Assembly (NCBI RefSeq): GCF_002075285.3 | Contig: NZ_CP021983.2 | Span: forward strand, 2,070,001 to 2,102,000 | Source of the DNA: Halomicronema hongdechloris C2206 | GTDB lineage: Bacteria > Cyanobacteriota > Cyanobacteriia > Phormidesmidales > Phormidesmidaceae | Direction of reading: 5' to 3' | DNA length: 32,000 bases | Shown: one piece after another, positions 28,401 through 31,961 of the stretch | How the letters are laid out: each line of letters starts with the position of its first letter | Numbering within the stretch: position 1 is the first letter of the stretch | Notes under the pieces: generated by a model | Seen by the model: only the letters and a program-made list of their open reading frames with translations | The model's database searches: none | Told to the model about the DNA's origin: nothing | Translations under genes and position numbers: made by a program

Positions 28401-29376
28401 GGGCTGTTAGGTCTTGCAGGTCGATGACCGCCAGGGGCACCTCTACAGTGGGATGGAGATCTACGGCAGGATGGCCCTCTTGGCTGACAAACCCGAGGCG
28501 CAGGGCCTCATGACGCTGCAGGAGAATCTGGAGACTGGCCTGGAGGGCGTCAATGTCAAGGGAACCGTGTAGTCGCAGGGCACTCGACAGGTGATAGAAG
28601 GGACTTTCTGGTTCGAGTTGGGCCAAAAACCACAGCCGTTGTTGGGCAAAGGAGAGGGGTAAGGGGCCGCTGCGCTCGATAGTGGTTATGGGAGGACTGG
28701 TGAGGCCCTGTTCCTCATGGAGGGCAGCTTCAATGACAGGCGCTAACTCAGCAATGGTGGGATGCTCAAAGAGGCGACGCAGGGGCACCTCTACGGCAAA
28801 GGCGTGACGCACGTGCGACATCACCCGGGTTGCCAGCAGGGAATGGCCGCCTAACTCAAAGAAGTTGCTCTGGATGCTGACGGTCTCTAGCTTCAGCACG
28901 TCTGCCCAAATGCTCACGAGCATCGCTTCGATGGGGGTGCGAGCTGCAACCGTTGCTGAAGTGTCTAGGTGCTGATACTCGGGGGCTGGTAGGGCTTTGC
29001 GGTCGACTTTGCCATTGGGGGTGAGGGGCAATTCCTTCAGCAGAACCATGGCTGCAGGCACCATGTAGTCGGGAAGCTGCTCTTGCAGGTAACGCCGTAA
29101 CGCTGAGGGGGAGAGACTGGCAGTGGCAGGGACGACATAGCCCACTAACTGTGGCTCGCCTGAGGCATTCTGGTGAGCGACCACCACGGCTTGTGAGACA
29201 GATGAATGGCGCAGCAGCACCGTTTCAATTTCACCTAGTTCAATGCGGAAGCCCCGCAGCTTCACTTGATGGTCGAGGCGACCCAGGTATTCCAGGCTGC
29301 CATCGCGGCAATACTTGACTAAGTCCCCAGTCTTGTACAGACGGGCCCCAGGTGTGGGGCTAAAGGGATTGGGCAC
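25435..29376 (-). CDS. NRPS, distal part of a frameshift-split gene: (A7-A10 of module 1)-T-C-A(Ser-like)-T
   Basis: It begins mid-A-domain: '[19 protein letters not shown]' (A7), '[20 protein letters not shown]' (A8) and 'NGKVDR' (A10). Next come T '[10 protein letters not shown]' and LCL-type C ('[11 protein letters not shown]', '[10 protein letters not shown]'). A full A domain follows (A3 '[14 protein letters not shown]', 'FDVSVWEFF', '[13 protein letters not shown]'), then T '[10 protein letters not shown]'. The track's start codon is a GTG artefact. Confidence 0.9.
   Translation of the reverse strand: [1313 protein letters not shown]
26218..26337. repeat. ~120-nt direct repeat, copy 1 (A5/A6 region of the module-2 A domain)
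   Basis: Hand alignment with 29403-29522 shows about 13 mismatches in 120 nt. Both copies encode '[42 protein letters not shown]'. Confidence 0.8.
27044..27320. repeat. 277-nt direct repeat, copy 1 (C-A linker to A2 motif of the module-2 A domain)
   Basis: Hand alignment with 30205-30481 has no gaps and about 20 mismatches (roughly 93% identity). Both copies encode '[90 protein letters not shown]'. Confidence 0.85.

Positions 29377-31961: not shown

Follow-up and report, generated by a model that had tools for sequence, protein, structure and literature searches.

Does the cyanobacterium Halomicronema hongdechloris C2206 carry a nonribosomal peptide synthetase (NRPS) gene that has been broken by mutation, an intact gene that is broken only in the database, or two genes whose products work together? 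The question is raised by a locus within a 32,000-nucleotide stretch of the 5,577,845-bp chromosome of this strain (contig NZ_CP021983.2, forward-strand positions 2,070,001 to 2,102,000), which we call the window and within which all positions below are counted. There, two overlapping open reading frames (ORFs) on the minus strand share the parts of a bimodular NRPS, and a first-pass annotation had proposed that a single base is missing from the first adenylation domain, between core motifs A6 and A7, splitting a continuous C-A-T-C-A-T gene (C, condensation; A, adenylation; T, carrier domain). This proposal is borne out by a 1-nt gap against the second module, by the fit to 60 homologues and by a repair that yields 2171 codons. 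As judged from these comparisons, the lesion consists of one base lost from a Phe codon (TTY) at plus-strand positions 29377-29378, and a real deletion of very recent date seems its somewhat likelier origin.

Site and size of the lesion

ORF1 (29319..31949, minus strand, as are all NRPS features given below; ASC71032.1/WP_088429648.1, 876 aa) begins at 31949, the first ATG of the open frame 29319-31961, and comprises a docking-like N-terminal helix, a C domain, the first adenylation domain through A6 and a 19-codon out-of-frame tail; Pfam finds Condensation and AMP-binding in it, the latter at residues 506-848 over the full profile. ORF2 (25435..29376; ASC71031.1/WP_088429646.1, 1313 aa) begins with GTG and holds A7-A10 of the first adenylation domain, T1, C2, A2, T2 and a docking-like C-terminal tail, with the Pfam order AMP-binding_C (49-123), PP-binding, Condensation, AMP-binding, AMP-binding_C and PP-binding. 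Both correspond to proteins deposited for H. hongdechloris C2206 (ORF1 at 100% identity, ORF2 with its GTG start as an exact match), and each half is the only member of its own 90% cluster. Frames and Pfam matches concur with the first-pass observation that the frame 29319-31961 turns into nonsense and that the frame 25435-29376 opens with the A7/A8 continuation.

The distribution of the core motifs places the break precisely. Motifs A3, A5 and A6 are found in ORF1, and A7, A8, A9 (LPDYMVP) and A10 (NGKVDR) in ORF2. The last motif in the ORF1 frame lies at 29409..29450 and is A6 in the established A1-A10 nomenclature; A7 (YKTGD, 29323..29337) is present only in the ORF2 frame, the same DNA being read as nonsense in the ORF1 tail, and its residues Y94, G97 and D98 are invariant in the junction alignment. 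Motif A8 (GRLD...) with the Acore/Asub hinge follows at 29224..29283, about 35 residues downstream of the break. As such, the motifs of an NRPS adenylation domain of the ANL superfamily stand in their proper order, with AMP-binding before AMP-binding_C, and the repaired domain finds LgrA (E = 5e-251) and 1AMU (E = 3e-120) as structural matches; as deposited, however, the domain is not one uninterrupted polypeptide, the frame changing between A6 and A7. The remainder of the gene is undamaged, with all A, T and C motifs there and ORF2 open for 1313 codons.

On the minus strand the junction reads ...CAG CGC CCC GAG TTA ACA GCA GAA CGC TTG TGC CCA ATC CCT TTA GCC..., in which the letters GAA CGC TT|G TGC CC and the position of the missing base at about 29377-29378, both given in the first-pass annotation, are readily seen. 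The frameshift site (29377..29378) is the leftover TT of a Phe codon (TTY) minus one base, and G29376, the next base, is the first base of the Val codon of the downstream frame. Homology of the C-A frame to NRPSs ends at ...RPELTAER, where the ORF2 frame takes over immediately with A7-A10 and then T-C-A-T, while ORF1 runs on through 19 nonsense codons (LCPIPLAPHLGPVCTRLGT) to a TAG at 29321-29319, this out-of-frame tail and its stop occupying 29319..29378. When 29300-29470 is aligned at the DNA level with the paralogous stretch of module 2, exactly one 1-nt gap appears, facing TGC TTT ATC, and the intact stretch in adenylation domain 2 (26181..26219) indeed counts 39 nt against 38 nt in module 1. 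The deposited sequence at the site is GAACGCTTGTGCCC, without an extra base, or GGGCACAAGCGTTC with two A on the plus strand; an intact allele would read GGGCACAAAGCGTTC or GGGCACGAAGCGTTC on the plus strand.

Insertion of one pyrimidine after the TT restores a single bimodular C-A-T-C-A-T ORF of 2171 codons with one terminal stop, slightly shorter than the roughly 2175 aa first estimated. The repaired 212-aa junction segment aligns with its 60 best database matches without any gap between LARGY and PNPFS, and the restored residue is Phe in 60 of the 61 aligned sequences, followed by Ile or Val in 58 of the 61. The lost base, by this alignment, sits in a conserved TAE(R/K)F(I/V)PNPF linker between A6 and A7 of adenylation domain 1. 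A model in which two bases were removed, or a 2-nt insertion occurred, was rejected, as the motif would then be one residue short of every homologue. A chance origin of the downstream frame can be dismissed, since it is open for 1313 codons and gives Pfam E-values down to 1e-123.

Comparison with relatives, which the first-pass annotation had suggested, points in the same direction. Two of three syntenic loci, those of Egbenema bharatensis (L001) and Fischerella sp. JS2 (L002), are intact and the third (L003) is broken differently; the database orthologues P0035, P0040, P0085, P0061 and P0106 are full length, and a single frame continues over the break point in every one of the 159 related loci that a 461-aa junction query retrieved (79 genome and 80 metagenome loci). 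The gene is uninterrupted in L001, L002 and these 159 loci, although its nearest relatives are only 54-58% identical. The hallmarks of a simple frameshift are therefore present: homology continues in the other frame, and a single-base change restores an ORF typical of the family.

Mutation or consensus error

Given that one base is missing from the deposited sequence, the two modules of the gene offer a measure of how long this may have been so. The first adenylation domain has two flanks that are conserved between the modules, one in the A1-A2 region (30179..30488; 90% DNA and ~93-100% protein identity to 27018-27327 of module 2) and one from A5/A6 to A8 that holds the frameshift (29225..29522; 80% DNA identity to 26039-26337 of module 2). 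At the protein level residues 486-575 are 96-100% identical between the modules and residues 805-894 ~81% identical, with a substrate-binding core of ~40% between them, and the two domains look like mosaics, as might be left by an old core swap or by gene conversion between the modules. The DNA differences in the flanks are mostly synonymous, the ratio of nonsynonymous to synonymous substitution rates (dN/dS) between modules being 0.07 in the first flank and, in the second, 0.13 over the 46 codons before the break and 0.10 over the 56 codons after it in the ORF2 frame (0.07-0.13 overall). Purifying selection in the ORF2 frame beyond the break indicates that the gene was one selected unit until recently, and hence that the break is either very young or an artefact. 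We also considered whether the frameshift is a recombination scar at the edge of a conversion tract, and rejected this, as identity changes too gradually at the site (~87% before, ~70% after).

Of these two readings we lean, by a modest preference, to a genuine loss-of-function mutation of very recent date, in which a formerly continuous 2171-codon gene simply lost one base. Ribosomes would then stop 19 codons past the shift, and the product would be a ~97-kDa C-A fragment without A7-A10 or a carrier domain, which would neither adenylate nor hold a substrate. The T1-C2-A2-T2 part, having no promoter-like or Shine-Dalgarno (SD)-like signal of its own, would be made poorly or not at all, and the assembly line that feeds the downstream polyketide synthase (PKS) modules would thereby be broken. 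We infer both the absence of the base from the DNA of the organism and this effect on the product.

The competing reading, to which we give a substantial though lesser chance, is that the base is missing only from the deposited consensus and that the organism has an intact 6.5-kb ORF for a 2171-aa bimodular NRPS. Several points weigh for it and against a real deletion. The gene is otherwise flawless, with purifying selection on both sides of the break, and one isolated indel in a gene without other faults is just the picture that a consensus error would give, too. Errors in homopolymer length do occur in 454 reads and in PacBio reads that were corrected with them, and if the lost base was a T, a change from TTT to TT would be a typical 454 error that PacBio reads corrected with 454 reads could share. 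The C2206 genome is a MIRA hybrid assembly of 17x 454 reads, 14x PacBio RS reads corrected with the 454 reads, and 41.5x Solexa 36-bp mate pairs (PMC6416890). Its contigs were merged manually in Gap5 and the joins Sanger-sequenced, and the authors verified real frameshifts in other genes and say nothing on this gene or on NRPS genes (PMC6416890). We likewise found no paper that mentions this cluster or its frameshift.

The same data also speak against an error. A run of at most three T is short for 454 reads at 17x, and the 41.5x of Solexa reads, which rarely make indels, went into the same consensus, so that a consensus error here would be atypical at that depth. The site lies outside the near-identical part of the intragenic repeat, which makes mis-mapping of reads between the modules unlikely. 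In addition, no other broken gene was seen in the 32-kb window apart from insertion sequences (IS), so that nothing obvious points to a high local rate of errors. The real frameshifts that the authors verified in other genes of this genome (PMC6416890) also speak for a deletion. Such frameshifts are presumably kept preferentially in dispensable, unexpressed genes, as this NRPS gene appears to be. The published proteome has no peptides for XM38_019770-019850, a run whose names and order fit this cluster, and 12 peptides for the neighbouring TonB-dependent receptor XM38_019670 (PMC6416890). A silent cluster beside IS debris, with the related L003 gene disrupted in the same loop, fits a dispensable and easily decaying set of genes. 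As neither half yielded a peptide, however, the proteome cannot tell one polypeptide from two and does not decide between the readings.

Nor did our searches find a second assembly, a sister strain or an environmental near-relative that could confirm the missing base. A search with ORF1 returned the protein itself at 100% and then at most 58% among full-length matches, the 212-aa junction query gave 65% at best, and a 77-aa junction query 79% at best among matches covering at least 90% of the query; these three protein searches listed matches of up to about 1.75 times the query length, and an intact orthologue of ~2171 aa may have escaped them. The repaired 2171-aa protein was absent, as an exact match, from a collection of 15 billion proteins, protein-guided scans for a close orthologue gave 56% identity at best in genomes and 55% in metagenomes, and the junction DNA pattern with 0-1 extra base had no match in genome or metagenome contigs, collections in which the C2206 genome itself appears to be absent or masked. 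Mutation, sequence error and recoding, the three explanations that the first-pass annotation had put forward, prove to be the right list, from which recoding is argued against below; the other two are inseparable without a second copy of the DNA.

The cut enzyme and its possible rescue

If the deletion is real, the place of the cut bears on whether module 1 could nevertheless work. The first-pass annotation had placed the cut between the N- and C-terminal subdomains of the adenylation domain; this needs correction, as A7 and the A8 hinge both lie downstream of the break. In searches of the repaired domain against solved structures the break falls at query residue 368, and 5n81 and 7ywj (TycA), 8p5o (GrsB), 4gr4 and 5jnf (LgrA), constructs that seem to comprise the large subdomain alone, can be aligned as far as query residues 401-403. 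The cut is thus, by these alignments, about 35 residues inside the large subdomain, upstream of the Acore/Asub boundary. With the large subdomain truncated, a working two-piece enzyme is less likely than the earlier wording implied. In ANL enzymes the A7 aspartate binds the ATP ribose and the A10 lysine is needed for adenylation. Given these roles, ORF1 alone, which is also without a carrier domain, should be inactive.

ORF1 and ORF2, the latter made from GTG 29376 or a nearby start, might still reassemble non-covalently, as do Crz1 and Crz2, for which experiments have demonstrated an adenylation domain that is encoded by two genes and yet active (PMC11342130). An in-frame GTG exactly at the switch point and the undamaged state of ORF2 would suit such an arrangement, which we nonetheless regard as highly improbable. 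The Crz domain is cut after A8 and an embedded methyltransferase, in the small subdomain, and in C2206 it is the large subdomain that is cut, ahead of A7 and some 35 residues short of the hinge. The 20 nt before the GTG (GAGTTAACAGCAGAACGCTT) contain no SD core of the GGAG/AGGA type, although cyanobacterial genes often do without SD sequences, so this is weak evidence, and no promoter-like site or terminator was found in 29200-29800. The ORFs overlap by 58 nt out of frame with no start codon near the ORF1 stop, which makes translational coupling unlikely, and ORF1 carries a nonsense tail of 19 residues. The split is moreover not conserved, the gene being continuous in L001, L002, the five further database orthologues and the 159 fetched loci.

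A programmed -1 ribosomal frameshift, or transcriptional slippage, could in principle supply some full-length protein, as the two frames stand in a -1 relation and are both open over 124 nt (29322..29445); nowhere else could a -1 shift join the ORFs. This stretch contains, in the ORF1 frame, one heptamer of the form X XXY YYZ, namely C CCT TTA (29361..29367, read from 29367 to 29361). We consider recoding extremely improbable and rejected the heptamer as its site. Homology switches at 29378/29376, 9 nt upstream of the heptamer, and a slip at the heptamer would give LCPIPL in place of FVPNPF; the heptamer is explained as a by-product of conserved Asn-Pro-Phe codons, and the actual switch point, CGC TTG TGC, is not slippery. 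The 119 nt downstream (29358-29240) fold with z = +0.20, as 112 of 200 shuffled sequences fold at least as well, and there is no run of A or T long enough for transcriptional slippage. Two frames are seen in no relative except L003, which is broken differently, by a heptanucleotide repeat. As such, neither a heptamer at the switch, nor a downstream structure, nor a conserved two-frame arrangement, as would mark a programmed -1 frameshift, is present.

Taken together, it is very unlikely that the base is truly missing and module 1 active all the same, be it through reassembly of a domain cut between A6 and A7, for which we found no precedent in this analysis, or through low-level -1 slippage. 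Were it so, the interruption in L003 would hint that genes of this family tolerate a break in the A6-A7 loop or can switch there.

Relatives, cluster context and known systems

The nearest relatives of the NRPS gene are single-module C-A-T genes that follow a gene for a luciferase-like monooxygenase and precede a KS-AT-KR-ACP gene. Among full-length matches, those closest to ORF1 are of this kind (P0023 58%, P0051 58%, P0035 57%, P0040 56% and P0085 54%), and their loci share with C2206 the order PKS, luciferase-like gene, C-A-T and KS-AT-KR-ACP. Their adenylation domain is unbroken through ...TAEKFIPNPF...YKTGD, and they have one module in 1115-1140 aa, whereas the H. hongdechloris gene has two. 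When 25435-31949 of the window was compared with L001 10001-13381 and L002 10001-13360, the part of the relatives from A7 to the end shared 56-62% with the tail of module 2 and a lower 42-55% with that of module 1, and their C domain was closest to C1; for the single-module proteins as a group the corresponding tail values are 56-59% and 42-50%. From these identities, the bimodular gene seems to descend from a one-module ancestor whose adenylation domain gained an internal T-C-A unit, either inserted or duplicated.

The third syntenic locus has a lesion of its own. ENA contig L003, with a coverage of only 8.65x, carries the orthologue P0037, which shortly after PNPF is divided into ORFs of 897 aa and 224 aa by a perfect (AAAATTC)x3.7 repeat of 26 nt (L003 12612-12637), which shifts the frame in the PNPF...RLYKTGD loop of this Scytonema-like gene. 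A change in copy number of the 7-nt unit would toggle the frame, and the upstream PKS gene on the contig is also split. We rejected a common cause for the breaks in L003 and C2206, as the L003 lesion is a heptanucleotide repeat a few codons further on. What L003 shows is that the PNPF-RLYKTGD stretch is a variable surface loop that accepts insertions, and clusters of this family perhaps decay readily. In Fischerella sp. JS2 the PKS gene downstream of the NRPS gene (L002 15461-20147) is called as five fragments (688, 67, 221, 125 and 491 aa), which represent several frameshifts or stops, due to either decay or assembly errors. A further peculiarity of the family concerns the active-site motif of C1, near window position 31400 (ORF1 residues ~178-186), which reads HHIIADRWS instead of the usual HHxxxDGWS. 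The same Gly-to-Arg change occurs in the syntenic orthologues (HHIISDRWS and HHIICDRWS), and being common to them it marks a subtype of C domain that follows a PKS and a luciferase-like gene rather than damage.

Downstream, the three assembly-line genes that depend on the NRPS (14616..25411, minus) are all intact: KS-AT-KR-ACP (20681-25411, minus), KS-AT (17623-20688, minus) and ACP-aminotransferase-TE (14616-17540, minus), with a JmjC/cupin gene (13551-14525, minus) beyond them. In the stretch 17540-17760 an AT-rich, helical tail of low complexity (...LEQLITQQLEIISQQLDLLNLHE*) closes the KS-AT protein, and 82 nt further on an ACP directly begins the ACP-aminotransferase (class III)-thioesterase protein. 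A second break between these two genes (17540-17623) was rejected, as the tail of the upstream protein is helical and docking-like and the gene that follows has a clean start at the ACP; the junction looks like a natural boundary between genes within a PKS module, leading to an unusual terminal pair of aminotransferase and TE.

Between the biosynthetic and the transport genes, at 9490-13448, lie IS remnants: a C-terminal fragment of IS110 type (9490-9861, minus), a DDE_3 fragment (9888-10118, minus), an ISL3 fragment (11299-12207), an IS630-type pair of HTH and DDE_3 ORFs (12652-13448), and an IS5-type transposase in two overlapping ORFs in -1 relation (10313-10570 and 10549-11256), whose overlap shows no obvious slippery site. 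Genes for an EntS-like MFS exporter, a Peripla_BP_2 periplasmic binding protein and a TonB-dependent receptor with an AMIN domain follow at 4094-9300, and an MbtH-like protein, a type II thioesterase and a phosphopantetheinyl transferase are encoded at 502-2552. Given the receptor, the binding protein, the exporter and the other accessory genes nearby, a siderophore-type product is plausible, and the hybrid NRPS-PKS cluster, on this gene content, probably makes a siderophore. Beside the MbtH gene, a 117-aa ORF (2589-2942, minus) matches Pfam CBF_beta (core binding factor beta) at 31 bits against a cut-off of 25 bits; this is a eukaryotic family and unexpected in a cyanobacterium.

If the deletion is real, the first known chlorophyll-f producer would have, in its type strain, a dead cluster that should not be counted as productive in genome mining, while the return of a single base would be an inexpensive means of awakening the cluster. 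If an error is to blame, the database proteins ASC71032.1/WP_088429648.1 and ASC71031.1/WP_088429646.1 are artefacts, and a single entry of 2171 aa should replace them. In both cases, this is an ordinary single-base frameshift and a matter of routine curation, and it implies no new mechanism or biology.

Among known systems, the corallorazine NRPS Crz1/Crz2 of Corallococcus coralloides shares with the C2206 locus an adenylation domain of a bimodular NRPS that is divided over two adjacent ORFs. There, however, the cut follows A8 and an embedded N-methyltransferase, A9-A10 are on the second protein and activity in trans was measured (PMC11342130), whereas the locus in C2206 is cut between A6 and A7, has no methyltransferase, reads in overlapping frames with a nonsense tail and is split in this way in no relative. 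Homopolymer errors of the 454/PacBio era resemble it more closely, with one base lost from a possible short run in an otherwise perfect gene and with the same types of reads, although a run of no more than three bases and the presence of Illumina-type reads in the consensus make it less typical of them. From NRPS and PKS genes that were inactivated by frameshift it does not differ in kind, the lesion here being known from the consensus alone, without a sister strain to date it; like them, it shows a single indel, two halves in different frames that are each annotated as a coding sequence, and a cluster that is otherwise intact and silent in culture.

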